DNA of 63,991 nt, filler included, from Perkinsus olseni (Eukaryota), in the NCBI GenBank assembly GCA_013115125.1. It is 3 parts of 3 records of this genome, joined end to end, with 100 filler letters (N's around TTAATTAATTAA, not from the genome) between each part and the next. Parts side by side here need not be neighbours in the genome. Positions count along the whole stretch, not along the records: positions 22,891 to 45,645 come from JABANN010000531.1; 2 more parts are not named here. One strand, written 5' to 3'. A program made the translations under genes and the position numbers. A model generated the notes under the pieces. That model ran no database searches, had not been told where the DNA came from, and saw nothing but the letters and a program-made list of their open reading frames with translations. Shown one piece after another: positions 22,791 to 49,986 of the stretch. Position 1 is the stretch's first letter; the number at the start of each line of letters is the position of its first letter.

Positions 22791-22890
22791 NNNNNNNNNN
22801 NNNNNNNNNNNNNNNNNNNNNNNNNNNNNNNNNNTTAATTAATTAANNNNNNNNNNNNNNNNNNNNNNNNNNNNNNNNNNNNNNNNNNNN
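22791..22890. other. artificial contig-join spacer (44 N + TTAATTAATTAA + 44 N)
   Basis: Seen directly: exactly 100 bp, and the 12-mer places stop codons in all six frames. Confidence 0.97.
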
Positions 22891-33408: not shown

Positions 33409-34773
33409 TCAAATCGCATGCTCATCTATCCAATCGACCAGCGACGAGCTCTCCGCTGTTGTTACCTTCCGCACGAACAGCGACCCATCTCTTATAGCCT
33501 GTTCAACGAAGGGCACTTCATTCTCAGTCAAAACATTTGTCTTGCCGCTAGCCTCACGCTTCACCCCCGAGAAGTGCGACTGAGCCGCGGGATTCCCCCG
33601 ATGTATTTCACCCGGCTTCAAAAAGTGTCGCACAATCGGACCGTACAGAACCTCGTCGGCCATCTTAGACAACCTTACATACGCCAGAATTTTTCGAAAA
33701 ACCGGATCGTCGAAAAACAGTTTTTCCACCGCTTCTCGACTGAAGACGCTGTTGAAGAGCGTATTGCATAGACAATACATGGCCTTCTCCTTCATAAACG
33801 GCGATGACCATCTCTTCCTCGTCAAGTTGAGTATCCCCAGCGGGGCTGCTCGGTCGTCATCACCAGCCGAGCATGGTATAACCACCTTCTGCCACCGCTT
33901 CTTCATAGCGTAATGATCGTGCATGCAGCACTCCCGAGGCACCCAGGTCTGCCCTTTAGTAGAGCTGAGCAGTTCGTGGAACCTCCCCATAGTGACTACT
34001 GGATAGTCGCGAGAAGTGAGCGTGACGAAGTGACTGTAATGCCTCCAATTCTTCGCTCGTCTCGCGAAGCCCATAACCGACCACATCTCGTTCAACACAG
34101 TACTCGTCGCCCACACTATCTTCCTGTGGGGCCTCACAATGCACAAGTCAGCTGGCACTGAGCCGAGTAACTCCTCCGTCACCCCATCCGCGTGCAACAC
34201 AATAGTGTTCATCGGATGCCTCAGTCGCTGCAGCACTCGCAGCAACATACTGAGATCGGTAAAGTACGTTATCAGTATAAACGCACGCTTGTCACTCTCG
34301 TCATTCAAAATAGCCCTGCAGTTCTCTTCGGTCACGAATAAAGGCTCTAGCGGTCGAGCCTTCTCCCAGTGGCAAAGTCCTTGCGCGTTCACCAGGTCCA
34401 AACTCAGCTCCCATCGTGCTTCAACCTCACATTCAGGATTCTTCAGCTCTGGCGGGAAGACGGCTCCTTCAAGGTACCTCTGCAGCTGACGATTGATCTC
34501 GTGCTGGTCCACCCCAGTCCAATCGCAATGTCGCATTTCTTCGTAGAAAAGGTTCCTGTGTCGGGTCATGTAGTTTGTGTATTTTCCTCGATCGAACTTT
34601 TCCCATGCAAAATACGGCGGCACGAAAACCTCCTTTACCCCGACCTGCGGCGTCTCGTAATTCCGTCCACCGACTGACACTAGCTGGTAGGCCTGGCGAG
34701 GCATTCCAGTCCAAAACCACAGACCTGCTGCGGCGAAGGCGAGTATAATTATTGAAGACCGTTTAGGGAACAT
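33409..34773 (-). CDS. glycosyltransferase family 14 (core-2/I-branching GlcNAc-transferase or xylosyltransferase-like), type II membrane, intronless
   Basis: N-terminal signal anchor SSIIILAFAAAGLWFW. GT14 motifs AFILITYFTD..LLRVLQRL..PMNTIVLHAD, IVWATSTVL, WRHYSHFVTLTSRDYPV, MADE and SLFVRKV. The ORF can extend upstream to 34866. Confidence 0.85.
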   Translation of the reverse strand: MFPKRSSIIILAFAAAGLWFWTGMPRQAYQLVSVGGRNYETPQVGVKEVFVPPYFAWEKFDRGKYTNYMTRHRNLFYEEMRHCDWTGVDQHEINRQLQRYLEGAVFPPELKNPECEVEARWELSLDLVNAQGLCHWEKARPLEPLFVTEENCRAILNDESDKRAFILITYFTDLSMLLRVLQRLRHPMNTIVLHADGVTEELLGSVPADLCIVRPHRKIVWATSTVLNEMWSVMGFARRAKNWRHYSHFVTLTSRDYPVVTMGRFHELLSSTKGQTWVPRECCMHDHYAMKKRWQKVVIPCSAGDDDRAAPLGILNLTRKRWSSPFMKEKAMYCLCNTLFNSVFSREAVEKLFFDDPVFRKILAYVRLSKMADEVLYGPIVRHFLKPGEIHRGNPAAQSHFSGVKREASGKTNVLTENEVPFVEQAIRDGSLFVRKVTTAESSSLVDWIDEHAI

Positions 34774-35954
34774 GAAGCGAGCAATAACAAGGAAGGGGTC
34801 CTGCAGCGAGTTCTGGCAGAGACCGACTAATTGGGAACGTAGCAGGCGACTTCTGCCATCTGGCATCCAGTCATTGATTCGCTGTCTTCTTGTGGATGAT
34901 CCACCACTTAGCGTCGGCGATGTTTCTGACGGAGCAAAATTGAAATATGCTTCTTACGGTCTCGCTCCGCTTTAACGGTTGCTGTGATTGTCATTAACCC
35001 CGATTGATACTCTAGTAACTCGAAGCATCCTTCCACAGCACTTAGAGAGGTACAATCGACCCGAGCAAGTTGAATGATGCGCTCGCACGGTGGGGTGAGT
35101 GCGGTGGTATATCTTGAAAAATTAGTTTGTTGTTTGTCGCTCTACTCACGATGGACCTGAGAAGCCCAGGCGAATAGCCTAGCGAATAGCGAAGGCGCGA
35201 AGGCGAGACTCATGAAAATGAGACATCTCGTAGCTCTCCATCTGCCCTGGTTGCCGAGTTACATGCAGGAGTATCCGACCGTAAGTTCCGTCGGACTCCG
35301 ACGTATTGAAGACAACGCGTTGTCACCATGATTGACCCACAGATATACAGCCTAGAGTGGTTCAGCGGGAATGCCTTGTGAGAACCACGGCTTTCATTCT
35401 AAGCAGTACAAACCTAGTTGTACTAGGCAATCATAACGTAGTTTATCCGTCAATCCCAGTTCGTATGACCCCGGCTTTTCCGTACAAAGAGCGACTCTGA
35501 TTCCTTTGTGGTCACAAGCACCACAGGAAAGGAGTTCAAGTTTTTCAAGATATATCGCCGCACTCACCCCACCGTGCGGTCGTCTGATAGCCCAAGTAAA
35601 AATAAAGCACTCCAAGAACGATGTGGTAGTTGGAGGGAATCTGCTCATGTTCTCTTTACTAGACGATGCCAGCTCCCCCTCTCACCTGAAGTTGCTGCCC
35701 TCAACTTTCACTCCCATCATACCAACTCGTCACGACCAGAAACGGCCAATCATCGGCTACCACAACTTCAAGCGGAGTAACGTTTCGTAATCGTACGCAA
35801 CCAAGGATATGCAATTCTCTACTCGAATGACAGTTATACCACAAAACTCCCAACTCGTCCGACTGACAACACAACTGCTCAGCCCCGCCAAGAGAGAGAA
35901 TAATAATACCAATATGAACAACCGAGGATAAAAGTATTTCCAACGATACGGACC

Positions 35955-36942
35955 TCAGCGACGGTAAAAAAGATACCTGACCCGCAAAAGATTCTCTCCA
36001 TCTAGTTAACCCCCCTTCCTCACATTAACATGAACATAGCCACTACGAAAAGGGCCAGGTATATCATGGACCGCCCGCTGCCGCTGTCCACCATACTCTG
36101 CAGCTTCGCCATGGTCCCCTTCAGCATCTGAAAAAACGGTTAGTCTAGTAATGGTAAAATTTGCGATCTCGCCGTTTTCATAAAAAAAATTATAAATTAT
36201 CAGCGATGACCGACGAGTGCCATCGGGCAACGCCCGTCTAAACTCTGCATTCCACACGGAAAAAGAAGACGAAAAAAACTTCATCAACTAATCGTCGGAC
36301 AATACCGGCATGATCTCATAACAAAATACTGTCACCCGACTGAACACCTTCCCCGGCCATCCACCGCAAGGCACGTCGCCGTACTACATTGCCAGCTTTA
36401 TCAAACTGTCCACCCATGCCGTTCAGTATATTGTTCGACTCGCGAGCCTCTCGACCTATGCCATGGGCCACTTCCTTTACAGCACGCACTCGGGCGTCCA
36501 ACTCGTCAAGATACTCATCATTCTGCTGCTCCAACACTTGGGCACTCGCCCCGCCCTGAACAACAAAGCGATGCCATTGAGAATAAGACTACGCTACGAG
36601 CAACAAGGAAACACCGTGAATAATGAAGCGAAGGCGCGAACAGAAAACGACGTGCAGAAGCCTGACTCACTCGAGGCTGCATCTCTCTGCTGCCAGAATA
36701 GCGGTTGCCGAATAACGCTGCCCGCTGGTCTACTTCAAACCTGAGGAGACAACCCTCGATAGATTCCCCCAACTCAACCGACGACATTCAACACAAATCC
36801 AACTACCTGTTATTTATACGCTCCCGCACATCATAAGACTTCCGCCCGCCCGACGACCCGTCCCCGGCCCGACCAGCGTAACCATCGCGACTCGACATTT
36901 TAGAAACGGAAAACAAACCTCCTGAGCCCACCTTCTATTCAT
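35955..36942 (-). CDS. BET1: BET1-like Qc-SNARE (5 exons)
   Basis: Spliced: MNRR|FEVDQRAALFGNRYSGSREMQPR|GGASAQVLEQQNDEYLDELDARVRAVKEVAHGIGREARESNNILNGMGGQFDKAGN|MLKGTMAKLQSMVDSGSGRSMIYLALFVVAMFML|MYLFYRR*. It has a SNARE heptad, a C-terminal TM helix and the RAALF N-terminal motif typical of Bet1. Confidence 0.8.
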
Positions 36943-37200: not shown

Positions 37201-40200
37201 TTACATGGTCTCAGCATTCCGCGCTCGACCAATATTGCTCACAACCGGTCGAAGCTTCCGCAGAGGGGCGACCACTGGGCTCTGGTCCTTCAAGGACACT
37301 CCGACGAGAGCGATCTGGCCGTTGCTGGCTGCAGAGATACCCGCCCATTCTACAGAAGCAGGGAAGTCGCCATGGACGGTGGCACGGGCCTCCAGAGCAC
37401 CTGATGTCGAAAATGTCGGAAAATTGAAATTGCTAAATTTCATTATTTTAAAATTATTATTGCCTAAAATTTTAATTGTCAACTATCATGGCCGAGCCGA
37501 GTTCAAACACGTCAGAACATGTCTCAACAAGTTCATACTACATGACATCCAAGATTAGACAGTACAGCATCGTTCTAGTATCGACAGATTCATTTTCGGA
37601 AGACTTCGACACATCACAATCTCCCTGATGGCCGTCCGCCACTAGGCCTCGGAACCTAGTCTTCATAGAGGCTTTCCATGTCAAGCAGAGTTCCGAGGCA
37701 GAGCCCTATCATATCTTTCCTGATGGCAGCGGATTCATGCCGTCTGCGCCTCCTTAGTAAAGCCGAGCTAGGAAGCTCAGGCCGGGATGCCGGACGCATT
37801 CAAACTATCTTTACAATTCTTGCTGATCCGACCTCGGGCCGTCAAGTCTACAAGAGCCGCTACCTGGGACGAACGGACCCATAACAATGTGACACTCAGG
37901 ACCAACCCTCTCGGACCATGGCTAACTTGATATCTTATCCACTAGGCACATAGATCTGGATGATTCCGTGTTCGTTCCGAATACCCTCCCCAGTTTGCTC
38001 TTGACTCAAGAGTCTTGAGCTTCACCAACAGCCCGAAGGTCTCGCGGCAGACTCGAGATCCATATTTCTCACAAGATCTTCGCAACTGTTTCCAAAATAT
38101 TTCACGCATTACCGTCGCTTAGAGGTGCCTTGGGAGCACCCTCCTTAGTGCTGGTTTCTTCGTTGAAAGACCGAAGTACCATGCTCGCCCCAGACCGGGT
38201 GGTACCGTGGCATTCGGCGCTTCCAGTTGTACTGCTTCTTCCGCTCTGGCGTAAGTACTCCGCTCATGAGGCATAGCGCGTTGAAATATCAGGTTGAAAC
38301 CTCCCGCAGTTGAGGCGAAAAAAACTTTTTCGTTTTTTGGCGATTTCCGAAATCGACCAAAACCCGTATCTATTCCCCCTACCACTATGAAGATCTATCC
38401 GCCCGGCAGCATAGTCCGGATGCTCCTCGGTGGTCGTCTCTTGCCACAACACATACAACTTCTCAACGTTCGACCTTTTATGCGCCAAACCAACCACTTT
38501 TCCAGGAGCCCTAAGGACCCTCTCAACCACCAGAGAGGACGACGATCCATCGTATCTAAGGTCGATCATGGTAAGATTCATTCAAGCTCAGCTTCCTGCC
38601 TACCTGACCAACTGGATCCACTGAGGATGCTCTCTTGTAACGACTGCAATCTCGTCATCAGCCAGGAACTCCGCCTTCACAATAGCGCTGCCGGTGTTCA
38701 TGCGGGCCGTCTCTTCAGCAGCCGATTGCTCACATCTCTTCAACCCACCCTCGGACAAAACAGCGAAGGTCGTGTTGGACCTGAAGATTCCTTAAATGGA
38801 ATGATCGATCAAGTATCTCAGGTTGAAGCCCGACATTGACCAGTCTAATGATTCCCCGAGATTATATAACTCGTCATGCATTAGGTAACAATGAATTGGA
38901 ATCTTAGGTTGAAGCTCGACCTTCTCAGATCGAAGCGTAGTCCCCCAACTTACGGCGTCACCGCCACATCAACCGCCCTCTCGCCAAAAGGAATGTCGCA
39001 CTGAACATCCGCACCAAGCTGTGGAGAGTAAATGGTGCCCTGAAAAAAAGAGGATGCTGATGAACTATACCCGTAGTAAATTTTCCCATCAAATTGATTG
39101 CGTTGAATCATTTGATTAAATAAAAAATTACACCAATTTTTCCCAATTCATCAGCTTCGAAAACTTCCTAAAATAATATAAAAATAATACACTCATTCAA
39201 ATGCCTCCGGTTTCACAATACCATAACATCCGTAACTCTCATCACATGAAGAAGCGAGGTAAACACAGCCACCAACGATACAGGTTGAAAAGAATTCCGA
39301 CGATCGAGACAGTTCTAATAAACCAGCTAAGAATAATGAAAACTTCACCATCAACAAACCTATTAAAATCATCAACGACTTTCCCTAATAAACAATAACA
39401 TGGCTCATTCACGCGCCCAATTCACCATACCATAACAAACGTAAATCACATTACCCCCAAACCACAAAGAAGTGCCTCACCAACCGCCAGCTGACCTCAT
39501 TGCTGGTGAAGACCAGTCCAAGCTCGGGGATGTTGCTGACCCCCGTCGGACGGAAGAACGGCGGCCAAGCCCCGCTGGTCTCCGAGGACTCAACATTCGG
39601 ATAGAACGCCGCTGACAGCCTTCGAGTGAACTCACCATTACCGAAGGGATTCGAATCAGGCCAACCTAAGGGAACAAAGATGAATCGCCATTTTATCGTC
39701 CATTCTTCTTGCCACATCACCATCAGCGTAAAAACATGAACAACGCGCCCCGCTGAACAACAGCGACGCTTGTAACGGGCAGTAAATCCATACTGCGGAA
39801 ACCATTAATCCAAATTGTCTCAGCGATTACTACAATCTACTGATCTCCTGAATCTCATCCACGTCTTTTATATCATGGACGAGTGAGACATACTCGAGAC
39901 CAAAGGCCAAGCCGCAGATCCCAGTCGAGAGGACGCTTCCTCCAGAAACGACTTTCGAATCATGTCGACTTTCGATTTTCGATTCTTCTCCGGGTAAAAC
40001 GCCTCATTAGTGCAACGTGGCGCTTGTCTCGCAGCGGAAATCGCACTGATCTACATGATGTGTAAACAAAAAAATATTTTCAACTTTTTCCCGCTTTTTC
40101 CACTACCTACCATCTACGTAACAATGACTAGTATTCTCTATACAGTACTACGCGAAGCTTCAACACGGAGAAATTTTGCAGATGAACTGACGGTATCTTT

Positions 40201-43200
40201 ACAATTATCTTACGACTCACAAGAAAGATACCAAAATTCTTCTGCGTGCGCAATAGATATTCTCATTATTACCCCAGCGGTATCCGGTAAGAACTGCAAT
40301 GCCATACGCCAACCCGAACAGCCAGCAGAAGCAGACCGCGATGCAGGCCTGGTTGAAGCTGTGCCAAGGGAGGGTCTGCGTCTTAAGGGACGCCTTGTAG
40401 GTCTCCGGGGCCTCTCCTAAATGACGGGAGAAATACCTTCGCCGGGGTTCGAACCTGCGCCCTTCTTACCATCGATGAACTCTGGGCTTTCCAACGACCT
40501 CGCAACCCTCTTCGCTTCCTCTTGCTTCTGCTTCTCGACGTCCTTCATCCACTCTGGACACGAAATTCCGTAATTGACCAGCTTCAACCTAAGATGCCCC
40601 TACCAGATGGCGTCCCAGACTGCATCCTAGATATCTTCCCTTCGCTATTCTTCTGAGCAGTCTCGTCGACTACCAAACCCTCCTCCCGACTTTTGCGATA
40701 AGATCCGCTCTTCCCAACTGTAAAGAGCAAGCTTCGACCTAAGATACCACCCGCAACCGAAATCTCACTTTCAGATTTCTTCTTGTCCTCAGCGGCCTCC
40801 TCCACGCTGGACTTAGCATCCCACAGGAACGTCTGCAAGGACTTAACTTGTTCCTCAAACCCTTGCAGCACCACAGCCACCGCCTAGACAAAAACAACAA
40901 TCGATCAACTAGTCGATGTCATTCCCAGGTAGAAGATTCTGCTACAATAACATCAGCAGTGGTGTTCACCATCAAGTTCAACCACAGGTTTGACACTAGT
41001 TGCCATTACGTTATCATACATCGTTATTGCTCACTGGCTACATCGGTTATTATAATTCGACCATCCATGATAAAACACGAGCAATTAGTGCCAAGTACTA
41101 GTGATGATGAGTCGGATGGAAATAAAGCCGCACGAAATTCTTCAGTAAAATATCTCACAAGTCTTTCCGAGCGCATTCCGGCATTTCAACGACTACTGGA
41201 AGAAACTTCCAAACTGTTTCATCATGATGCTAAGAGTATCCTCATGTTTTTACTACAATACCAGTAGAGATAAAAATCCTAATTTTCTATCCTAATCATC
41301 ACCCTCCCCCTCCTACATCAGGCCCATCCTCTGCCTTGATCTGGTCGGCCGATAAGTCCTTCGGTACGGTATAACTAATCTCGCTAGTATGCACATTGAG
41401 GAAGTATGGCCTCTTCTGGTTGGTATTATCATCAGTAAACTCCAACCTCACCCAGTGACCTGTCCAGACACACGTTGCTCGTCTTTACTCAAGCGACGAC
41501 GAGGACAGACCCACACAAACCCTACAGATGATAATGAGGTGATGATGCAAATTCAACTGGTGGGCGCATGATACAGAACACAGATTTTCTACAACCAAAA
41601 CAACCAAACAAAATACCATAACACGATGTTCTACTAATTTGATACCGCAAGGCAAGCAGGCCAGTGCCCCTACTACTACCTGGGGACTCCTCCCCCTCAG
41701 CGTCATCAAAGCTGGCGTTGGGAGCTCGGACCACGTCGCTGGCCTGAAGTACTTGATGAAAGATCGAGAGAGTGGCTGATTATTATCACCCCATTAACAA
41801 GCTTTTTGCGTTCACCCACAAGCCTTGCAAGCTCCTTTCTGTCGGAATTGAATGCCATGCGCAACCTGACATATTCCGTATCCTGCAAGCTCAACCTCAA
41901 GATACGCTTACTGTTTCAACCTCTTCTCCTGCGCCGGAGTAAACGAGCATTCCGTAGACATCTCCCACTCCACCAGCAACTTCTGCAGAGAATCTTCCGT
42001 ATTCCTAAAAAATCCCAAAATCTTCGCTGTGCGCGACAAAAGATTCCAAAAGATACGCCCCCACTACCTGCAAGCCTTCTCCAACCTCTCACACGCATCA
42101 ACCGCATCACTTGCATGCTCCGACGCACTTTTCTAATAACAAACATCATCGATTGCAAACCGCGCGCGCCCAGTTGATCGATTTCCGTTACCGCTGTGCT
42201 AAAGTGAGAGGTATCAATACCGCTCTTCTTGAGCTCTTCCTTGGTCTTCCTGAACGTGTGAGCCTGCCTGATGACCGGGGCTGCGGGGACCGCCTTAGCC
42301 ACAGGCGTCTCTTCCTTGTCCTGCTTATGGAGGTCTTCTTCTTCCCGCTCTGAGAAACATCATATAGTCAAATTCCGGACTACAAGGGAAGCAAAACAAT
42401 TCTTTTGTCGACACGCCCAACAACCTATCTTCACTGTACAAGCTTCACTATTGCTATGCAAATCCAGATACGCCCATGCCAGGCTACCCCTATCAAGATC
42501 TTCAAGATTTAATTTTTGCTCTCTGAAAAGCATCATAAGACTAAATCCACGACTAATGGACATGACGAATCCGTGCAGGATGTGTCTATCACCCCCGTGA
42601 AAGTTCTACTATTACTAGACGAGATCTGATACCACTGCCCCATACCATCGAAGGCGAACCTCAAAATCTATATCCTCACTAAACCTATTCCAGCTCCCCT
42701 AAACTCATCAAATTCTGCGAGCACTTGCAATCTTGACTCACCTTGAACTTTCTCATCGAGCCCCAATATATCAATACTAGTAACAGCAGTATACCTCGTC
42801 GGCACGCCACCATCAGTCTCGATGCCCATGAACCCCAAGAAGCCGATCCAGCAGAACATGAGCAGACAGATGAAGACGAAGAGCCACTCGGCGACGTGCG
42901 TGGACTGGTCGAACATCTGCACGGTGGCCCCGATGCCGGCCATGATGAGAGGCAGGGAGCAAAGGAACATCATGACACACCACTCGAGGGTGTTGGTGTA
43001 AAGATTCATGTGAACGTGGACCATGGCGAAGGCGTCCAGGATGAGGATGAACGACCTGAATGGCAGAAAATCGGGAGATATCTTAGGTTGATGCGAGGAC
43101 AACATCGAGAATAAAGATACGTCTTTGATTTGATCATGCTAGAATTGGAACCCTCTATGAGAAGGGAGTTCCCTCATCCGCATTGTTAGCGACGAGGGAT

Positions 43201-45255
43201 GAAGAGTGTTAGCGGATTCAACCATGTCCGAGAACTACACGCAAGAATGCCCAGAACAATCCGACGTACTTCCCGGAAATATTCTCAACAGCCGACAAAA
43301 GATAATATTAAACGCTCGAGAAGTATCCACAGGTCGACCATGGACAAGACAAAAATAAAGATACCCATCACAACAATCCCCAACAACACGATGCACAAAA
43401 ACCGAATATCCCTACCACTCCTCCCCCAACTCACCAGACGCCCCACAGATGCGAGTTAACCATAAAGTATGCCAAACCCATATACGTGATAGCATGCAAG
43501 AGCTGATTCGTACCAATAACCTGACGATTCAAAATGACCCCCTCTCCGATCGGTATTATTATCACTACCATGCAGACTCGAGTATAGGCATCGAAGCCCT
43601 GCCAATGCTGTTGGAGTTGGTAGAACAGATAAAAGTGCTCGAGGAAGAGGTTGTAGTCGCCAACCAGCTCATCGCGAACATACGCGTTGCTCATGTCAAT
43701 TTCTTGCTGAAAAAATGAGACCAGTCAAAAGGTGGCGATGGCTCTATCATTGGCAAAGCAGAAATAGATTCCGATACTAAAAACGGATTCATCTCCTGCG
43801 TGTCCTCTTTCGCTCATCCTCACACGATGAGAAGCAAGTTGGTGTTCCATGTCAATGACCATGAGAGAATACTTCAGAAAAGGTGGAGGTAAAATTACGA
43901 CTCGGCAAATTTCAAAAATATAAGATACTAATACTGAACCGCCAAGCCCCATCGGATGAGATCGATAGGAATCTTTCATTCCGTGTATCACATGCTTCAA
44001 CATAAGATACTACCACTTTCATTACCTCCTTAAGAGCATCTTCCAACCTCCCCCCTCCCTGTCTACGAACCTCTCGACCAACTTCCTTAATCCCAGGCAC
44101 TCGACTAAACCATGAACAAAATTATCAACAAAAGATTCCCTCAAAAGATTCTATCTTACCCAACTACGGGGATCCTGAGCATCTCCGCGACCCCACCCCG
44201 TTCGTACTCGACCGCGCCGATACCCGTCGTGGCGTTGATATTCTCCAGTCCAGGGACAGGCAGACGCAGCCACTGCGTGAGCAATCGCACCTACAACAAC
44301 GCAGCCGAAAGATTTACACAGGAAGCATCTTTTGGATTTAACTCACAGCGAAGGTTTGTGCGGTGATAGAAGCGTGAATGGCGAATATGATGGAGAGAAT
44401 CAAAAATAGGACGGCCGAACCCAGGGAGAGCAGATACAGCCAAACCAACCATCCGGGGGTACCTGAAGGGAACGGAAACTGATAGAAAAATAGGAAAAAC
44501 GAAACGAATTGAAATGTCGACAAGGCGCAGTAATTAGCGCATCGACTATGGTCAGATGGTGGGTCAGAGAACTTCAGCGGGAAGACTTCCGGGGACGGAA
44601 ATTAAATTAGATAATCTAAGGACTGCTGAGTAAACGATCACGTCCACAGACGGTGTCGGAGGGAAGCGTAACTCGCCTTTGTCCGCTATACCAACTACCT
44701 ACTTCATCTACCAGAGACGCTGCTTCAATTTAGATTAGTTCCCATTAAGGAAGAGTTCCATTGCGATAATAATACTAATACGGGAGAGAGAGGACATTCT
44801 TCTCACCGTCCGTTGGTGCAGCCGACCCTTCACTCATTCTATGCGCTCTTAGTGAATGGATAGTGAATATAGAAACGGGGTTGATGAGTATGAGAAAGCT
44901 GCTTACCTTGGGGTACTCGACCTTCATAGAAGAAGCCACCAGTGAAGGCGAGCATGAGGGTGTTGACGATGAGGTAGTTGTCCATCTTAGAAATGGTCAG
45001 GTCGAAAAGGTCCCGAATATCCTCACGGTACAGCCGTACTTGGTCAAACCGGGCTTTCTGGGTATGGTACACCTGATGAGAGAGGAGAGTATCTTCAGGT
45101 TGAGCATGCAAGATACAAAACAGGTCAACAACCCGGAGCCCATCGTATAGTACCCTTTTCTGATTGATCTTCCTATTGAACATGAAGTTCTGCCTGTTAT
45201 ATTCGAAGATGCCCTTGACACCCTCGAACACTGATCCAGCTTCCAAGCCTCCCAT
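37201..45255 (-). CDS. multi-pass membrane protein with an Orai/CRAC-like N-terminal pore module, extra TM helices and a C-terminal beta-rich (propeller-like) domain; about 20 exons
   Basis: Phase-consistent GT-AG exons 45154-45255, 44907-45072, 44347-44462, 44160-44290, 44026-44104, 43569-43706, 43435-43520 and 42742-43055, then further exons to the stop at 37201-37203. About seven hydrophobic helices. The gene itself is well supported; the Orai assignment is inference (see findings). Confidence 0.75.
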
Positions 45256-45645: not shown

Positions 45646-45745
45646 NNNNNNNNNNNNNNNNNNNNNNNNNNNNNNNNNNNNNNNNNNNNTTAATTAATTA
45701 ANNNNNNNNNNNNNNNNNNNNNNNNNNNNNNNNNNNNNNNNNNNN
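45646..45745. other. artificial contig-join spacer (44 N + TTAATTAATTAA + 44 N)
   Basis: Same structure as 22791-22890. Confidence 0.97.
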
Positions 45746-46896
45746 TAAACTCTGTCGAATCCTCCGAGGCTTTGCAGAGTCGCCTGGCCGAACAGCGGCC
45801 GTGAGCGAGAGAGAGAGAGGACAGAGGAGTGACTCGCTCTCCTTAGCCACTGTTACATCTCTACATGAGTTGAACTCATTAGTACTAGTACATTGAGTTC
45901 TAGCAGAGCAGAGATCATTTCTCCGATAAATTAGACGGGAATGGATACTATACACTGGATAGCAAAGATGAAATTGAACACTTTCATTGATGTAAGAATC
46001 CCATGGAATGCTCCTAAGGAAGACTCCAGACGACTGGATTATCAGGTCCTGACAGGTTCTCCTCAAGTTCCTGAGGAACAGCCTTCCCAGGGAAGGCTTC
46101 CCTAGGGTTCGTCCGACAGACTTCGTCGAGAAGCCACACTAAGTGATATAGTGCAGTCATGGGACTGAACTCGACTCGATGCACGTATGTAAATCTCAGT
46201 AGAAAGCACATATCACTCGGGAGCTCCTCTACTCTTACGCTCTCGCCGCAATGCTAAATCGATGAAGGGAATTCGACACGCCACTGCTTGACGGTATCTG
46301 CACACGATTAAGATGCCCACTGTCAAAACGGATTCCCGATATAATACGCCACCCGCGTGGGATGTGGCCTTGCACTGCAAAGACCAACGGATTTTCTCAG
46401 GGGCTGACAGTCAGGGCCTGACTGCCAGGCTGAACTGAGCTGCGATGATCTTACTGAGGTCAGTCAACCTTCGGCCGTGAAAGAGTCACTCATTGAGGGT
46501 GAATCATACTTACAAGCACAGATTTCCACTTCGAACATTGAAAACTTTTCAATGAAAAGGCATCGGTCCATTCGATATCCAGCTCCCGGATTTCCGGGAG
46601 CCGGATATTGCATGGACCGAGGCCAAGGCTTATTCCGGCATCGAGGCTGCCTTCCGAGCCCAAATGTAGCTACTGAAGCTATTGGAGGTTCCTCCCCTCG
46701 AAATCCCACAGCTATTAGCCTGAAGTGGTGGCTGAGAGCGTCACCGTCCCGAGAGCTATCTCCGCGCTATTTCCGCTCGCCCTAGACAAGAGTTGCGGAC
46801 GCGCCAGTCGGACTGCCGTCTCCCCATCGGGTACGAGACATTTCCTCGAGTGTCGGCCTACTCAGTTCTCTCGCCATCCTCTCAGCTTTGCTTCAA

Positions 46897-49800
46897 ATGA
46901 GGCTGCAAAACCTGGCGTCGCTCGGAGTAAGTATTTTGGGTACTTGCAAGTTCATCAGAGTCTGCGCTCACCGATCAGCAGTACCCGAGCTCATCCTCTC
47001 TGGGTTGTACCGGAGCGTGGACAGGGTGTCGGGCTTGGATGGTATTGCTATACGGTTTATCGATGGAAAAAGGTGCGCTATTATATTCCTAGCAGGAATG
47101 GCCAAACAGGGCTTCCGGTACGCGGTGGAGACCGAATTCATCAATATGGAGTCATTCACAGATCGAGGACGCCTCTCGTGCTACCGATTATCTCAAGTTA
47201 ATACTGTGAAAGCGCTATTGAAACGAACTCGTTGGCTTGCACGCTTGTCCAGAGGCCGACTTCCTGACCTGTCGGAAACTATGGATCTGTGCGTGTCGGG
47301 TGATCGGGTCGTATTGAAGATTGGAAATTCTGAGTTTCGGATGGGAAAGATCTCTGATGACCCATACCACATTGTAGAGCAACCTTTGGAACCACCAGAC
47401 AATGGCAAGTACGTGAACGACAGCCTAGTCCCTGGCCTGAAAGGCTTGTCCCTTACAATTGCCGAAAATCGCAAGATCTCAGTTGAGATAGTGCTACCAG
47501 ATGGCACGACCCAGGAGTACTGTCGAGGGGTTTTGCGGGAGGCCAGTACGCAATCGAGGTGCTTTGAGTTTGTGACCGCAAACTCAAAGTTACGAACTAA
47601 TGGTCTTGCTTTGGGGCATTTCTTAATGGATCTACCGAAGTATGAAATACAACTGTGTCGTGACTCTAAATCAGCGACATACCTGGCCTTTGACAAGGTG
47701 AAAGTCCGACTGAAGCAAGAGAGCACCGGAGTCCATGAGCCACGGACTGAACCGAAGCGTACGGACGATCCCAGCGGACATCGGCTCGCTATATCAGGTC
47801 TGTACCGGACAACTGGCTCCGTTTCTGTGTTCAACGGTCTGGCTCTGAGGTTCGCTGAGGGGAAATGCGCCATCGTATTCCTCGCAGGGATGCCCGAACA
47901 AGATTTTCGATACTCCATAAGTACAGAGTTCAGCAGAATGCAACCATCTACTACTCGTGGGCTCACATGTTACAAGCTGAACAATGAGAATGTGAGAGAT
48001 GATTTACATAGAGCCAGCACCCTCCAGAAGAAGCTCGGGGGGCCAGGGAATGTCTCGCCGGAAACTGTCTTCCCCTGTGTCTTGAACGGCGGTGTCCTGA
48101 TGATGGCTGGTGGCTCCACATATCCAATGCGTATGGTCTCCGGCGATCCCTACAAGTCCCTGGAGCTCCCTCTCCAACCTCCTCCACCTGGCGTGTATGT
48201 GAACGATTATCCGGTCGCTGGCCTGGACAGCGTGACTGTCGCAGTAGACACTGATGGCAGTTTTTCGGTGAAGGTCGCAATAATTGGCCGAACGGAGGTC
48301 ACTTTACTTGGGCGGACGTTCCAGAGTGCAGATCCACTACAAAGATGCTTCCGAGATGTGACACCGCATGTACAGAGCATAACCATTTTACTAGCTGCAA
48401 AGGATTCCTCGACTAAATTGATATTGGACGACGTGAAACTTTGTCGAGACTCATGGCTGGTGACCTACATTGTCTTAGGCGACATGAGTATTCGCTTGAA
48501 GGAGTTTTCTCACCCAGAGAACCTTGCGAATAAAATTCGGCTTGGGATGCCTCCTGGGGAGGCTAGCACGAGAAGTCAAGTTATTGGACAGGATAAGCCT
48601 CCCATCTCTAACCCCAAGCCCACAGGCGAATCCATCATCCGCGAAGCGAGTCAGGGAAATGCCGACTCCCCAGACCTGGGTTCGCTTTGGCCTTCATCTG
48701 TCACGAAAAGGTCGTCACCTGGGCCTCGTAATGGATCCCCGAGAACGGGCGACCAAAATGTGCAGCAGCTGCTTCCGGTCCGGAAAGAGGAAGCGTCAGC
48801 CTTAAATCCCGAGCCCAAGAAGAAGTTAATCCGTTTGCCAGTTTTCTCAGTTTCGCCTTCATCTGCCGGGGAAACGCTGCCATCTGGACTGGCGCGTGGA
48901 GGATTTCCGAGAGCATCTGGTGACAGTGCGGAGCTTCGAGACCAGCAGAAAGACACCCTGAAGCCCAAGAGGGAGCCCCTCGCTGCCGTTGTGAGCGCAC
49001 CGAGTGGGAGTCTTCTACATATCGATTCGCTTCTGCCTTTACCCGCCCCGCAGAGGTCACCATCTGGACCGGGGCGTGAGGGATTCCCGATAGTAAGTGG
49101 CGAAGCCGGGAAGGTTCGAATTCTTCGGCAAGGTGAGCCGTCAGCCTTAAACGACGGATCTGGAACGAAGTCGCCCTTGGCTGAACCGGGGAGCTCGGAA
49201 AGTGGGAACCTCCCGGAGTTAGATGTGCTTCTGCCACCGCCGGTCAATTCCAGGAGCCGCGTAGAATCAGTCCATGCCGCTAGACCCCACAAAACTGTGA
49301 CTGGAAGGAGTTTGGGGCCTGCGGAGGATTTGCAGGCCTCCATGGAAAGAGGGTCGCTGGTAAAACCTAGCACTCACCCCCAGAGGCCGCGGAGCACCGC
49401 ACTGCAATCTGAGACGGATGGTGCACGGGCGAGCAAGCGACAGAAAACCAAGCACACCGCAAGTATCAGTCACGGGCTGGCGGAGAGAAAGCCGGGTAAA
49501 GTAAGACCTCACACGGAGAATACGGGGAAACACGGCGGTGAGAAAAGTGATTTCGGACCGACTACTTCGGCTATTAAGGCGCGTGAGAGCGCATCTGGTG
49601 GTGGCCACCACGGTTTTGGATACTCTCACAAGGCCCGTTTTCCTACCGGAGCGGTGGGAAAGCCATCCGGATCCAGTCAGGTGAGATCTCTGAGGCCGGG
49701 CGACGAGGAGTCCAATCTAGAGACTCAGCTATCAATTATCGACAGCGAGGTCCCTGAGTGGTCGACTACTCCAACAGAGACTCGGGGCGTTGGAATGGTT

Positions 49801-49986
49801 CCCGACTTTGGCGCTTCACTCGTCCCTTCTAATGTCACTTGGAGCGACCTACTATCACCTGAGCCGGGGGTGTCGATGACAGCTCCGAGCGGAGCTGGGG
49901 AAGAGCGCGGAGAGCTGTCGATTGATGAGAAGCTGGAGATGGTACGTGGAGGATTGCTTGACTTCCTAGACCCGGATAAGCAGTAG
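46897..49986 (+). CDS. secreted-family protein, paralogue A: signal peptide, two copies of a ~240-aa domain, disordered tail
   Basis: Intronless 1032-aa ORF; first ATG at 46897 (MRLQNLASLGVSILGTCKFIRVCA). The domain SGLYR..GxAxRF..KCAIxFLAGM...DPY..xExPLxPPxxGxYVND..C..C occurs twice. Confidence 0.8.
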   Translation: MRLQNLASLGVSILGTCKFIRVCAHRSAVPELILSGLYRSVDRVSGLDGIAIRFIDGKRCAIIFLAGMAKQGFRYAVETEFINMESFTDRGRLSCYRLSQVNTVKALLKRTRWLARLSRGRLPDLSETMDLCVSGDRVVLKIGNSEFRMGKISDDPYHIVEQPLEPPDNGKYVNDSLVPGLKGLSLTIAENRKISVEIVLPDGTTQEYCRGVLREASTQSRCFEFVTANSKLRTNGLALGHFLMDLPKYEIQLCRDSKSATYLAFDKVKVRLKQESTGVHEPRTEPKRTDDPSGHRLAISGLYRTTGSVSVFNGLALRFAEGKCAIVFLAGMPEQDFRYSISTEFSRMQPSTTRGLTCYKLNNENVRDDLHRASTLQKKLGGPGNVSPETVFPCVLNGGVLMMAGGSTYPMRMVSGDPYKSLELPLQPPPPGVYVNDYPVAGLDSVTVAVDTDGSFSVKVAIIGRTEVTLLGRTFQSADPLQRCFRDVTPHVQSITILLAAKDSSTKLILDDVKLCRDSWLVTYIVLGDMSIRLKEFSHPENLANKIRLGMPPGEASTRSQVIGQDKPPISNPKPTGESIIREASQGNADSPDLGSLWPSSVTKRSSPGPRNGSPRTGDQNVQQLLPVRKEEASALNPEPKKKLIRLPVFSVSPSSAGETLPSGLARGGFPRASGDSAELRDQQKDTLKPKREPLAAVVSAPSGSLLHIDSLLPLPAPQRSPSGPGREGFPIVSGEAGKVRILRQGEPSALNDGSGTKSPLAEPGSSESGNLPELDVLLPPPVNSRSRVESVHAARPHKTVTGRSLGPAEDLQASMERGSLVKPSTHPQRPRSTALQSETDGARASKRQKTKHTASISHGLAERKPGKVRPHTENTGKHGGEKSDFGPTTSAIKARESASGGGHHGFGYSHKARFPTGAVGKPSGSSQVRSLRPGDEESNLETQLSIIDSEVPEWSTTPTETRGVGMVPDFGASLVPSNVTWSDLLSPEPGVSMTAPSGAGEERGELSIDEKLEMVRGGLLDFLDPDKQ

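Follow-up and report, generated by a model that had tools for sequence, protein, structure and literature searches.

A seven-helix modular membrane protein of Perkinsus olseni with a putative ion-conducting core that is Orai-like at best

Results

Gene structure and predicted topology

The window analyzed here is a 63,991-nucleotide stretch of Perkinsus olseni DNA (filler included), and a gene of 23 GT..AG exons occupies positions 45255-37201 of its minus strand. The exons, chained by script, gave the 997-residue P. olseni database protein P0001 letter for letter; this protein is recorded as "pumilio domain member 4", which is a misnomer. The stretch first noted (45255-42742) comprises the first eight exons, and all introns of this eight-exon model are GT..AG, with a 377-residue product identical to residues 1-377 of P0001. 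RNA-derived contigs of approximately 3.25 kb joined the exons across its seven introns at exactly the modeled borders (CT..AC on the plus strand) in all four runs examined, two of which are recorded as RNA-Seq, and the exon model was thereby confirmed. The gene is real and expressed in P. olseni, and it encodes a large membrane protein of modular build. All four helix sequences first quoted as TM1-TM4 were found in the spliced product at their proposed places, and the proposed glutamate codon encodes E84 (minus strand, 44925-44923). The features of the locus are as follows.

37201-45255, minus strand: complete coding sequence of P0001 (997 codons plus stop) in 23 exons, also mapped by tblastn
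45255-45154, 45072-44907, 44462-44347, 44290-44160, 44104-44026, 43706-43569, 43520-43435, 43055-42742, minus strand: exons 1-8
42349-42192, 42132-42068, 42004-41912, 41865-41790, 41743-41680, 41459-41317, 40883-40769, 40717-40604, minus strand: exons 9-16
40553-40470, 40416-40273, 39665-39496, 39039-38954, 38780-38604, 38555-38383, 37400-37201, minus strand: exons 17-23
42742-45255, minus strand: six-TM N-terminal module, residues 1-377 (exons 1-8), whose seven introns are skipped exactly by the RNA contigs
44986-45255, minus strand: residues 1-63, long N-terminal helix continuing into TM1 (AF2 helix 2-84), containing an 81-nt intron (45153-45073)
44923-44985, minus strand: TM1, residues 64-84, weakly hydrophobic and conserved, paired by hhalign with Orai TM1
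44923-44925, minus strand: codon of E84, the proposed selectivity-filter Glu, paired by hhalign with the invariant Orai Glu
44380-44454, minus strand: TM2, residues 93-117 (AF2 helix 93-135), with near-invariant P92 and W94 at its start (P92 before it)
44252-44379, minus strand: residues 118-141, which continue TM2 on the predicted cytosolic side and are conserved best of all stretches, spanning the intron 44346-44291
43455-43601, minus strand: TM3, residues 234-266 (AF2 helix 234-266), with D237, R241 (invariant), G247 and Y257, spanning the intron 43568-43521
42824-43439, minus strand: TM4 (272-290), TM5 (295-321) and TM6 (326-350) from AF2, hydrophobic, poorly conserved and peripheral; TM4 spans the intron 43434-43056
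40349-42760 (introns included), minus strand: charged middle region, residues 372-704 (E 43, K 34 and S 31 of 333)
41362-41457, minus strand: WW-like motif, residues 531-562, within the charged region, read from the sequence and the family alignment
40280-40348, minus strand: TM7, residues 705-727, a hydrophobic stretch after a 'PW..F' motif
37204-40279 (introns included), minus strand: C-terminal domain, residues 728-997, predicted to be extracytosolic

AF2 gave two confident models (pLDDT 83.9 and pTM 0.73; pLDDT 86.5 and pTM 0.76) with helices at residues 2-84, 93-135, 206-230, 234-266, 272-290, 295-321 and 326-350, and pLDDT was 89-98 across residues 11-100. We infer the topology from these predicted helices and from the distribution of K/R, of which direct reading of the sequence found 12 in the N-terminal 63 residues versus 1 in the TM1-TM2 loop; this distribution points to an N-in orientation, with which the cytosolic-type WW-like motif after TM6 is also consistent. 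The additional TM helices proposed in the initial annotation were recovered as TM5 and TM6 in the AF2 models and as the seventh hydrophobic helix at 705-727, its cytosolic low-complexity stretch corresponds to the charged middle region, and the order of modules that it put forward was supported.

A large family in perkinsids and dinoflagellates

The protein belongs to a family with 920 clusters at E≤1e-3, 735 at E≤1e-10 and 337 at E≤1e-30. Among the named sources listed, all members come from perkinsids (Perkinsus olseni, P. chesapeaki and P. marinus) or dinoflagellates (Polarella, Durusdinium, Effrenium, Symbiodinium, Prorocentrum and Amoebophrya), and no oomycete or diatom protein was found among the named matches listed. 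By these named sources, the family is a large, uncharacterized one of perkinsids and dinoflagellates. Perkinsids are parasites of molluscs, and among the dinoflagellates are coral symbionts, bloom formers and the parasitic Amoebophrya. Several paralogues were present per Perkinsus species, together with hundreds of dinoflagellate clusters, and a precomputed Pfam domain was found in none of the 120 family proteins listed. Natural short members of 400-600 residues also occur.

Column entropy was 1.79 for TM1, 1.94 for TM2, 1.09 for the TM2 extension and 1.83 for TM3, versus 2.55-2.95 for TM4-6, and the family mean Kyte-Doolittle values of TM1 (1.13) and TM3 (1.06) were below those of the other helices (1.3-1.6). 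R50 and D52 were present in 150 of 150 relatives, K63 and M64 were near-invariant, and the TM2 extension contained the conserved residues H119, A120, R130, T133, Q134, R137 (invariant), L138, P139 and P141. The invariant residues R50, D52, R137, E158, P169, H222 and R241 are candidates for mutation. The 'PW..F' motif ahead of TM7 was kept in the family consensus, and the C-terminal region was poorly aligned, with 2 of 150 rows passing a 40% gap filter.

Pfam WW recognized the motif in 3 of 64 relatives, with a best E of 0.03, but not in the P. olseni protein, which has Tyr in place of the second Trp; UniRef calls one Polarella relative 'WW domain-containing'. P0001 and P0002 had no Pfam match at E≤10, the charged region and the C-terminal domain included, and the latter had no match in PDB sequences either.

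Comparison with Orai

The initial annotation had called the N-terminal module a divergent Orai-fold channel. It is possible, though rather doubtful, that the protein is indeed a true remote member of the Orai superfamily, in which TM1-TM4 would be homologous to Orai M1-M4 with the subunits arranged around TM1, the E84 ring would be the outer cation filter, G76/F77 would serve as hinge and hydrophobic gate, and the protein would be gated by cytosolic and ectodomain modules of its own in place of STIM. Sequence searches argued against this membership. Pfam Orai-1 (PF07856) matched none of six single exons and none of three full proteins (P0001, P0002 and P0004) at E≤10 and none of 25 members at E≤1; when 64 members were scanned at E≤10, it was absent from the 25 families listed of the 53 matched. 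In the positive control, PF07856 matched 10 of 10 fetched Orai ORFs with E-values from 1.9e-44 to 6.2e-67. PDB-sequence searches with three queries, family profiles included, returned no Orai chain from a sequence copy that contains the Orai chains 4hkr, 4hks, 6bbf-i, 7kr5 and 6aki. The profile check against Pfam Orai-1 and the PDB thus gave no significant similarity to Orai.

Profile-profile alignment by hhalign used 33 fetched Orai-type sequences, a profile of limited reach as it is animal-type only with one common TM1 motif. The probability was 9.1-9.7% (at 9.7%, the E-value was 0.0033 over 47 columns of TM1-TM2 only); the real pair scored 27.4, and reversed whole-domain decoys reached 25.4 and 27.6. 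The best alignment nevertheless laid family residues 58-104 on Orai TM1-TM2 with E84 on the Orai Glu, and eight positions conserved on both sides matched (L59, K63, L73, G76, F77, E84, P92 and L95), including K63 with K, residues 76-77 with G-F and P92 with the TM2 Pro; L59 falls on a matching Leu and the other seven on invariant or near-invariant Orai columns. The register is that of the gapless TM1 alignment first proposed, chosen independently by hhalign, but the match is not shown to exceed chance because its score is not above that of the reversed-sequence decoys.

Other controls favored true membership. The cognate TM1-TM2 hairpin scored 26.1, the top of 12 hairpin comparisons (the other 11 reached at most 16.5), reversal of the TM1 segment of Orai gave 187 decoys of which none exceeded 18.4, and excision of the long loop yielded a collinear alignment over approximately 145 columns that scored 25.4-26.6 against 8.5-14.6 for reversed decoys across six cut choices. 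Against it, TM3 and TM4 added nothing to the profile score, so that the TM3 'VIGT' match first noted made no measurable contribution, and 13 decoys tied the real score, of which the eight listed all retain just Orai TM1 and TM2, forward and adjacent.

Neither AF2 model had a Foldseek match in the PDB at E≤0.001, and the fold is therefore not tied to any known channel; the best E-values were 0.10 for the full model and 0.21 for the trimmed model (XPR1), with TM scores of at most 0.27 among the matches listed. Foldseek is weak on helical membrane bundles. Orai chains are in the PDB sequence copy, yet none was among the matches listed for either model, and the structural similarity predicted in the initial annotation did not appear among the solved structures listed. 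In the ESM Atlas, Orai-1 clusters were the nearest among named families for two family members with 37% aligned identity to each other (scores of 0.88 and 0.87; 188 and 184 features in common out of 256), scores that lie below the tool's own bar of 0.9 and that it grades as leads only. The structure neighbor in the Atlas, with 208 aligned residues and a TM of 0.71 by target, was an oomycete cluster that is Orai-1 in part. The first four helices of the AF2 model have the Orai-like in-out order, with TM1 continuing the long helix 2-84, but there are six helices and an inserted loop of approximately 100 residues.

Of 150 relatives, 113 have E at position 84, 7 have D, 13 have K and 17 have another residue, so the glutamate is frequent and not conserved throughout the homologues; ten of the K forms make up one clade (support 1.0), and the other three lie on adjacent leaves. 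Among the Orai-type sequences, it was invariant in 33 of 33 because of how these sequences were fetched. In human Orai, K87 and R83 are basic residues of the M1 inner pore. In the hhalign register, the Orai inner-pore Arg column paired with I69 (I/L/V in 137 of 150 relatives) and the Lys column with D65 (D/E in 131 of 150), in agreement with the initial statement that R91-type basic pore residues are lacking. A254, seven residues after G247, stands at what we take to be the expected place of the Orai TM3 Glu, in an unsupported alignment. PMC3194816 gives human R91 as a basic M1 inner-pore residue, and, together with PMC11085791, gives the TM1 glutamate of Orai as invariant (human E106, fly E178).

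Overall, the Orai-fold reading gained no significant match in Pfam, the PDB or Foldseek, whereas the weak signals (Atlas, Atlas structure neighbor and hairpin score) all pointed to Orai and to nothing else, which argues against flat rejection. At the level of sequence, the likeness appears faint, confined to the TM1-loop-TM2 hairpin and below every significance threshold, and we therefore describe the module as 'Orai-like at best' rather than as a demonstrable Orai. Membership in Orai is not established; profile similarity, structural similarity and conservation of the glutamate gave a mixed outcome.

Discussion

We give about an even chance to the reading that the N-terminal module is the ion-conducting (channel or transport) core of an uncharacterized modular membrane protein, Orai-like at best. 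The family would then be a new channel-like one, possibly a remote relative of Orai; we infer its conducting function and any ion preference or oligomeric state. In the proposed arrangement, a cytosolic helix of approximately 60 residues would lead directly into TM1, and TM1-TM3 with their cytosolic extensions, conserved and weakly hydrophobic, would form the conduit core, with D65, N71, E84, H119, S121, D237, R241, N249 and Q250 as its conserved polar or charged residues. TM4-6, hydrophobic and variable, are probably lipid-facing, and the invariant residues R50, D52, R137, H222 and R241 at the predicted cytosolic membrane face may constitute a gate or coupling network. The core would be tethered to the charged cytosolic region with the WW-like motif, then to TM7 and finally to the extracytosolic C-terminal domain, and the combined modules would make a self-contained sensor-plus-conduit protein. 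Against a conducting core, conserved polar helices would also fit transporters, receptors or enzymes, neither model could be matched to a PDB structure at E≤0.001, E84 is replaced by K in the 13 relatives mentioned above, and the Orai resemblance may be chance, given the hhalign probability and the decoy scores.

A quite improbable alternative is a non-conducting receptor, adhesion or scaffold protein, whose ectodomain would bind a ligand or surface while the WW-like motif and charged region recruit cytosolic partners and the six-TM module acts as a structural or regulatory anchor. The modular build with its WW-like motif, TM7 and separate C-terminal domain would suit such a protein, as would the numbers of Perkinsus paralogues and dinoflagellate clusters, which are usual for surface-receptor expansions, and the lack of a detectable tie to transport families in Pfam, PDB sequences and Foldseek. 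However, conservation peaked in the TM1-TM3 core and in the stretches that extend it into the cytosol, where charged residues are invariant, and not in the tail modules, of which the C-terminal region aligns poorly, and a mere anchor would not retain polar residues in weakly hydrophobic helices. The database name is almost certainly wrong in implying a Pumilio/PUF RNA-binding protein, an identity whose sole support is that name on the NCBI and UniRef records of Perkinsus members (absent from the literature searched) and which is contradicted by the seven predicted membrane helices and by the lack of any Pfam family in P0001 and P0002 at E≤10, hence of PUF repeats.

When set beside the Orai/CRAC channel (PF07856; Drosophila Orai, PDB 4HKR and 6BBF), the Perkinsus protein shares the predicted N-in orientation of the first four helices, the predicted cytosolic helix continuous with TM1, the acidic residue with which TM1 ends on its outer side, the short loop and the Pro starting TM2; TM1 is the best-matching element, and Orai is the nearest named Atlas family. 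It differs in having no Pfam, PDB-sequence or significant profile-profile match, a glutamate that is not universal, I69 and D65 at the basic inner-pore positions, A254 at the presumed place of the TM3 Glu and a TM2-TM3 loop of approximately 100 residues; it also has two more helices, followed by a charged region of 330 residues, TM7 and a predicted ectodomain.

PMC11085791 describes algal and diatom 'AlgalOrai' and oomycete Orai homologues as protist forms that are far from the animal channel, keep the selectivity Glu and are recognized as Orai by ordinary searches. The Atlas places oomycete clusters, one of them 37% Orai-1, beside the Perkinsus family, but the latter, compared with that published description, is not recognized by ordinary searches. 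According to PMC7016017 (Schaffer et al. 2020), ORAI is ancient and often lost, and Jiraiya/TMEM221, restricted to animals, was united with ORAI; as described there, it offers a precedent in which a four-TM domain derived from Orai no longer has the Ca2+-binding residues and perhaps conducts no Ca2+. PMC3194816 reports that apicomplexans lack Orai/STIM by BLAST, as the initial annotation had stated, and that Paramecium likewise lacks a recognizable Orai/STIM; store-operated-like Ca2+ entry is reported there for Plasmodium falciparum and Paramecium.

As only the first two helices seem faintly to resemble Orai, the idea of a calcium channel is no more than a lead. We think it unlikely that the family is an extremely diverged Orai branch acting as a STIM-independent cation-entry channel, with a TM1 pore (E84 ring and G76/F77 gate) fused to a cytosolic coiled-coil/WW module and, via TM7, to an extracellular sensor. 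If true, it would provide a Ca2+-entry route in an alveolate group without any named one, and the subclades in which K replaces E would represent offshoots that are re-tuned or do not conduct. Should the link to Orai fail, a misleading name is still replaced by a defined seven-helix modular architecture. A large, expressed, strongly conserved family without Pfam domains, with a conduit-looking core and a faint likeness only to the Orai pore helix, is thus a concrete candidate for cation entry in perkinsid and dinoflagellate alveolates.

Gene structure and transcripts

The region at 42742-45255 was found to be the minus-strand part of an intron-rich eukaryotic gene, in which we located eight exons with GT..AG borders.

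Exons of the GT..AG model at 42742-45255
45255-45154, minus strand: exon 1
45072-44907, minus strand: exon 2
44462-44347, minus strand: exon 3
44290-44160, minus strand: exon 4
44104-44026, minus strand: exon 5
43706-43569, minus strand: exon 6
43520-43435, minus strand: exon 7
43055-42742, minus strand: exon 8

All four helix sequences quoted in the initial annotation lie inside the 377-aa translation of this model, and the glutamate proposed there as the selectivity filter is indeed residue 84, encoded at 44925-44923. When exon 8 was used as the query of a word-indexed search, four proteins were obtained from 127 candidates. P0001, a 997-aa protein named "pumilio domain member 4 [Perkinsus olseni]", was 100% identical across exon 8, and the 377-aa model corresponds to its first 377 residues; residue numbers below are those of P0001. 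For the full gene, 23 chained GT..AG exons from 45255 to 37201 gave P0001 exactly (script; tblastn map).

Four of the 24 public runs containing part of 42742-45255 were examined for transcripts. The exon model agreed with these data, as contigs in all four runs skipped precisely all seven modelled introns. All eight exons were present on one contig of ~3.25 kb in three of the four runs, both recorded RNA-Seq runs included, and this length was compatible with the 2994-nt coding region plus short UTRs. The P0001 gene is real and expressed; because the evidence consists of contigs, it establishes that the spliced form exists, its level not being shown. In runs X1 and X4, a contig at 44747-45129 joined 44764 to 45105 with 18 other letters between and had loose ends at 44747 and 45129. 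It may represent an alternative or an aberrant form spanning intron 2, or it may stem from a paralogue. We also observed paired 44-base N runs, 12 bases apart, in the filler at 22791-22890 and 45646-45745; the latter lies ~400 bases upstream of the start codon, and the promoter and 5' region are therefore incomplete.

Neighbouring open frames

P0004, the 1138-aa orthologue from P. chesapeaki, has an extra tail with a Pfam Use1 match at E 0.073. The counterpart of this t-SNARE/Use1-like tail lies downstream of the stop codon of P0001, at 36023-36742 (minus strand), with 89-96% identity. Since the ~3.25-kb RNA contigs agree with P0001, the shorter of the two models, 36023-36742 is probably a separate, neighbouring SNARE-like gene, which would have been fused in the P. 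chesapeaki model. A 514-aa frame at 33409-34953 (minus strand) showed a sub-threshold match to Core-2/I-branching glycosyltransferase PF02485 (E 2.1e-4, 21.4 bits against a cut-off of 23.4). Three further open frames adjoin the gene in the window, where they belong to another record (JABANN010000617.1), and none of the three matched a Pfam family at E<=0.001.

Open frames adjoining the gene in the window
46786-49986, plus strand: open frame of 1066 aa
50927-53059, plus strand: open frame of 710 aa
53980-55194, plus strand: open frame of 404 aa

Extent of the family

HMMER was run with P0002, a 406-aa partial form of the protein, against 1.84 billion cluster representatives, and revealed 920 relatives at E<=1e-3, 735 at <=1e-10 and 337 at <=1e-30. 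In two word-indexed profile searches (120 of 126 matches listed in one, 44 matches in the other), the named matches listed came only from Perkinsus olseni, P. chesapeaki, P. marinus, the dinoflagellates Polarella, Durusdinium, Effrenium, Symbiodinium and Prorocentrum, and the parasitic dinoflagellate Amoebophrya; the rest were unnamed metagenome or transcriptome proteins. No family protein among the matches listed carried a precomputed Pfam domain. Several paralogues were present in P. olseni (P0186, P0017, P0233, P0256 and P0244). Some members bear the source names "Dnah7", "AMT1-1" and "Autophagy-related protein 9", which seem to stem from gene models that were fused.

Architecture of the protein

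The N-terminal module was modelled with AlphaFold2 (AF2) from a 64-row family alignment (A3), and the model was confident (pLDDT 83.9, pTM 0.73).

Features of P0001 (residues; rows to TM6 from the AF2 model)
2-84: one helix, a cytosolic part followed by TM1 at 64-84
93-135: TM2 and its cytosolic extension
136-205: loop, poorly modelled
206-230: helix preceding TM3
234-266: TM3
272-290: TM4
295-321: TM5
326-350: TM6
333 residues after TM6: charged region (E 43, K 34)
531-562: WW-like motif, past TM6
705-727: seventh hydrophobic helix
270 residues, last module: C-terminal domain

The N-terminal 63 residues contain 12 K/R, and the TM1-TM2 loop contains one. From this bias and from the WW-like motif, WW domains being cytosolic modules, we placed the N-terminus and the region after TM6 on the cytosolic side, with E84 at the opposite, outer end of TM1. 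For the C-terminal domain, two of 150 rows passed the gap filter in a repeat search, too few to speak for or against a propeller. A three-copy complex prediction of residues 45-356 that did not use the family alignment gave a score of 0.02 and a mark of 0.32, values with no bearing on oligomerisation.

Seven residues (R50, D52, R137, E158, P169, H222 and R241) were invariant in 150 relatives. Conservation was much higher in TM1, TM2, the TM2 extension and TM3 (column entropies of 1.79, 1.94, 1.09 and 1.83) than in TM4-6 (2.55-2.95), and the least hydrophobic helices were TM1 and TM3. The module would thus be expected to have a polar, conserved inner core with variable lipid-facing helices around it. 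At residue 84, the conserved glutamate that had been expected is common but not invariant: 113 relatives have E, 7 have D, 13 have K and 17 have some other residue. In the core tree, ten K84 forms, all unnamed family members, constituted one clade with a support of 1.0, while the remaining three K forms were on adjacent leaves; His occupied this position on three adjacent leaves (alignment A2). The glutamate is thus probably ancestral, yet dispensable or re-tuned in subfamilies. G85 (143/150) and the cytosolic charged residues were more conserved than E84.

Comparison with Orai

The similarity to Pfam Orai-1 (PF07856) anticipated by the initial annotation did not appear: none of six exons matched, nor did any of three proteins (P0001, P0002 and P0004) at E<=10 or any of 25 family members at E<=1, and PF07856 was not among the best 25 of the 53 families matched by 64 members. 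Searches of all PDB chain sequences, a copy that includes the Orai chains 4hkr, 4hks, 6bbf-i, 7kr5 and 6aki, revealed no Orai at E<=10 with phmmer and two family profiles. A Foldseek search of the PDB with the full model found nothing at E<=0.001 (best E 0.10), and long coiled-coil proteins dominated its top rows. Residues 45-356 were re-modelled (pLDDT 86.5, pTM 0.76), and the best E was then 0.21 (XPR1, TM 0.23). For either model, no Orai chain was among the Foldseek matches listed, so the expected structural similarity to solved Orai was not seen. A transitive search with a profile of nine short members (lengths 86-562, E<=10) gave 44 matches, of which the named ones were all perkinsid or dinoflagellate and none was Orai-named or oomycete.

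Orai sequences for a direct profile comparison were fetched from metagenome contigs with one 27-base degenerate pattern for an Orai TM1 motif. The pattern identified 51 loci (L001-L051), in 34 of which the motif lies within an ORF of 200 aa or more, and full-length Pfam Orai-1 was present in 10 of 10 ORFs tested (E 1.9e-44 to 6.2e-67). Many of the 51 contigs are 1-2 kb long and resemble spliced transcripts from animals or small eukaryotes that were present in the environmental samples. The Orai-type alignment A6 comprised 33 ORFs, 10 of them Pfam-checked, leaving out the 659-aa ORF of L034 and 17 short ORFs; L025, truncated after TM2, was dropped in scripts. Because all rows share the fetched motif, A6 is limited in breadth and represents animal-type Orai.

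hhalign of the family against A6 returned one alignment (probability 9.7%, E 0.0033, 47 columns), which placed family residues 58-104 on the Orai TM1-loop-TM2.

Register of the family on Orai in the hhalign alignment
L59: L in 146/150; matching Leu in Orai
K63: K in 143/150; nearly invariant Lys
L73: L in 111/150; invariant Leu
Position 76: G in 102/150, Ala in P0001; invariant Gly
Position 77: F in 83/150; invariant Phe
E84: E in 113/150; invariant Glu
P92: P in 141/150; nearly invariant Pro
L95: L in 120/150; nearly invariant Leu

This is exactly the TM1 register proposed earlier, with E84 on the Orai glutamate, but its real score of 27.4 was matched by reversed-profile decoys (25.4 and 27.6), so that over the whole domain the match does not rise above a fair null. 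In the same register, an Orai Arg column lies opposite I69 and an Orai Lys column opposite D65. None of 60 locally shuffled decoys reached the real score (mean 15.9, maximum 25.2), a control that we discounted because shuffling destroys helix periodicity, which makes the reversed decoys the fairer null.

With the 80-residue loop excised, a collinear alignment of ~145 columns scored 25.4-26.6 at six cuts, compared with 8.5-14.6 for reversed decoys. A further 374 decoys were built by reordering or reversing the four Orai segments. Thirteen tied the real score, and in the best 8 of these 13 Orai TM1 is still followed directly by TM2, both in the forward direction; none of the 187 decoys that carried TM1 backwards exceeded 18.4. 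All signal therefore comes from the TM1-TM2 hairpin. TM3 and TM4 make no contribution, and this includes the TM3 "VIGT" match to which the initial annotation had pointed. Four-helix collinearity with Orai is accordingly not claimed. In a 3 x 2 x 2 hairpin table with the 150-row family profile, the cognate TM1-TM2 hairpin scored 26.1 (P 2e-4), while the other eleven comparisons scored 8.5-16.5. As judged from these profiles, the likeness to Orai is specific but sub-threshold, and local.

In the ESM Atlas, the nearest clusters to P0002 after its own were an oomycete cluster (0.89) and an Orai-1 cluster (0.88, 188 of 256 features shared), and nine of its ten best named matches were in the same family or clan as the Orai-1 cluster. 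P0034, a Polarella member (37% identical in the alignment), again had the oomycete cluster as named neighbour (0.88), as well as two Orai-1 clusters at 0.87 (184 features shared) and 0.85 (175). The Atlas model of P0034 matched a 237-aa oomycete cluster, 37% of whose members carry Orai-1, with a TM-score of 0.71 by target and 0.44 by query over 208 residues. By the tool's own statement, Atlas scores <0.9 are leads only, and the two queries are homologous, so their evidence is not independent.

Discussion

The defining Orai tests at issue were the Pfam model, profile similarity, similarity to solved structures, an invariant glutamate and a basic inner pore. Because these failed or gave no clear support, P0001 cannot be filed as Orai. 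There is about an even chance, in our judgement, that it represents a new channel-like family whose relationship to Orai is open. Weak but consistent pointers suggest an Orai-like TM1-TM2 hairpin within a new six-helix module; that the family is truly a distant relative of Orai, with TM1 lining a cation pore, is a tentative reading that we judge separately and hold to be rather doubtful.

PMC3194816 reports Orai/STIM homologues as absent by BLAST from the apicomplexans examined and Paramecium, and names R91 and E106 as Orai pore residues. In PMC7016017, ORAI is regarded as largely pan-eukaryotic, though lost many times, and is grouped with Jiraiya/TMEM221; the text mentions neither Perkinsus nor dinoflagellates. 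A divergent diatom Orai clade is described as retaining the Glu (PMC11085791), and ORAI is listed among the likely components of the last eukaryotic common ancestor (PMC7935092). Judged by title and start of abstract, none of the papers found was on an Orai from Perkinsus or dinoflagellates, or on this family.

From its conservation and polarity, we read the core as built like a conduit and not like an anchor. That the protein is a receptor or scaffold without conduction seems improbable. That P0001 is a Pumilio protein, as its database name says, can be dismissed almost outright: the name was rejected because neither P0001 nor P0002 matched any Pfam family at E<=10, and no paper was found in the literature under "pumilio domain member 4". 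If the channel-like module does conduct ions, the subfamilies with K or His at position 84 should differ in selectivity or be non-conducting.
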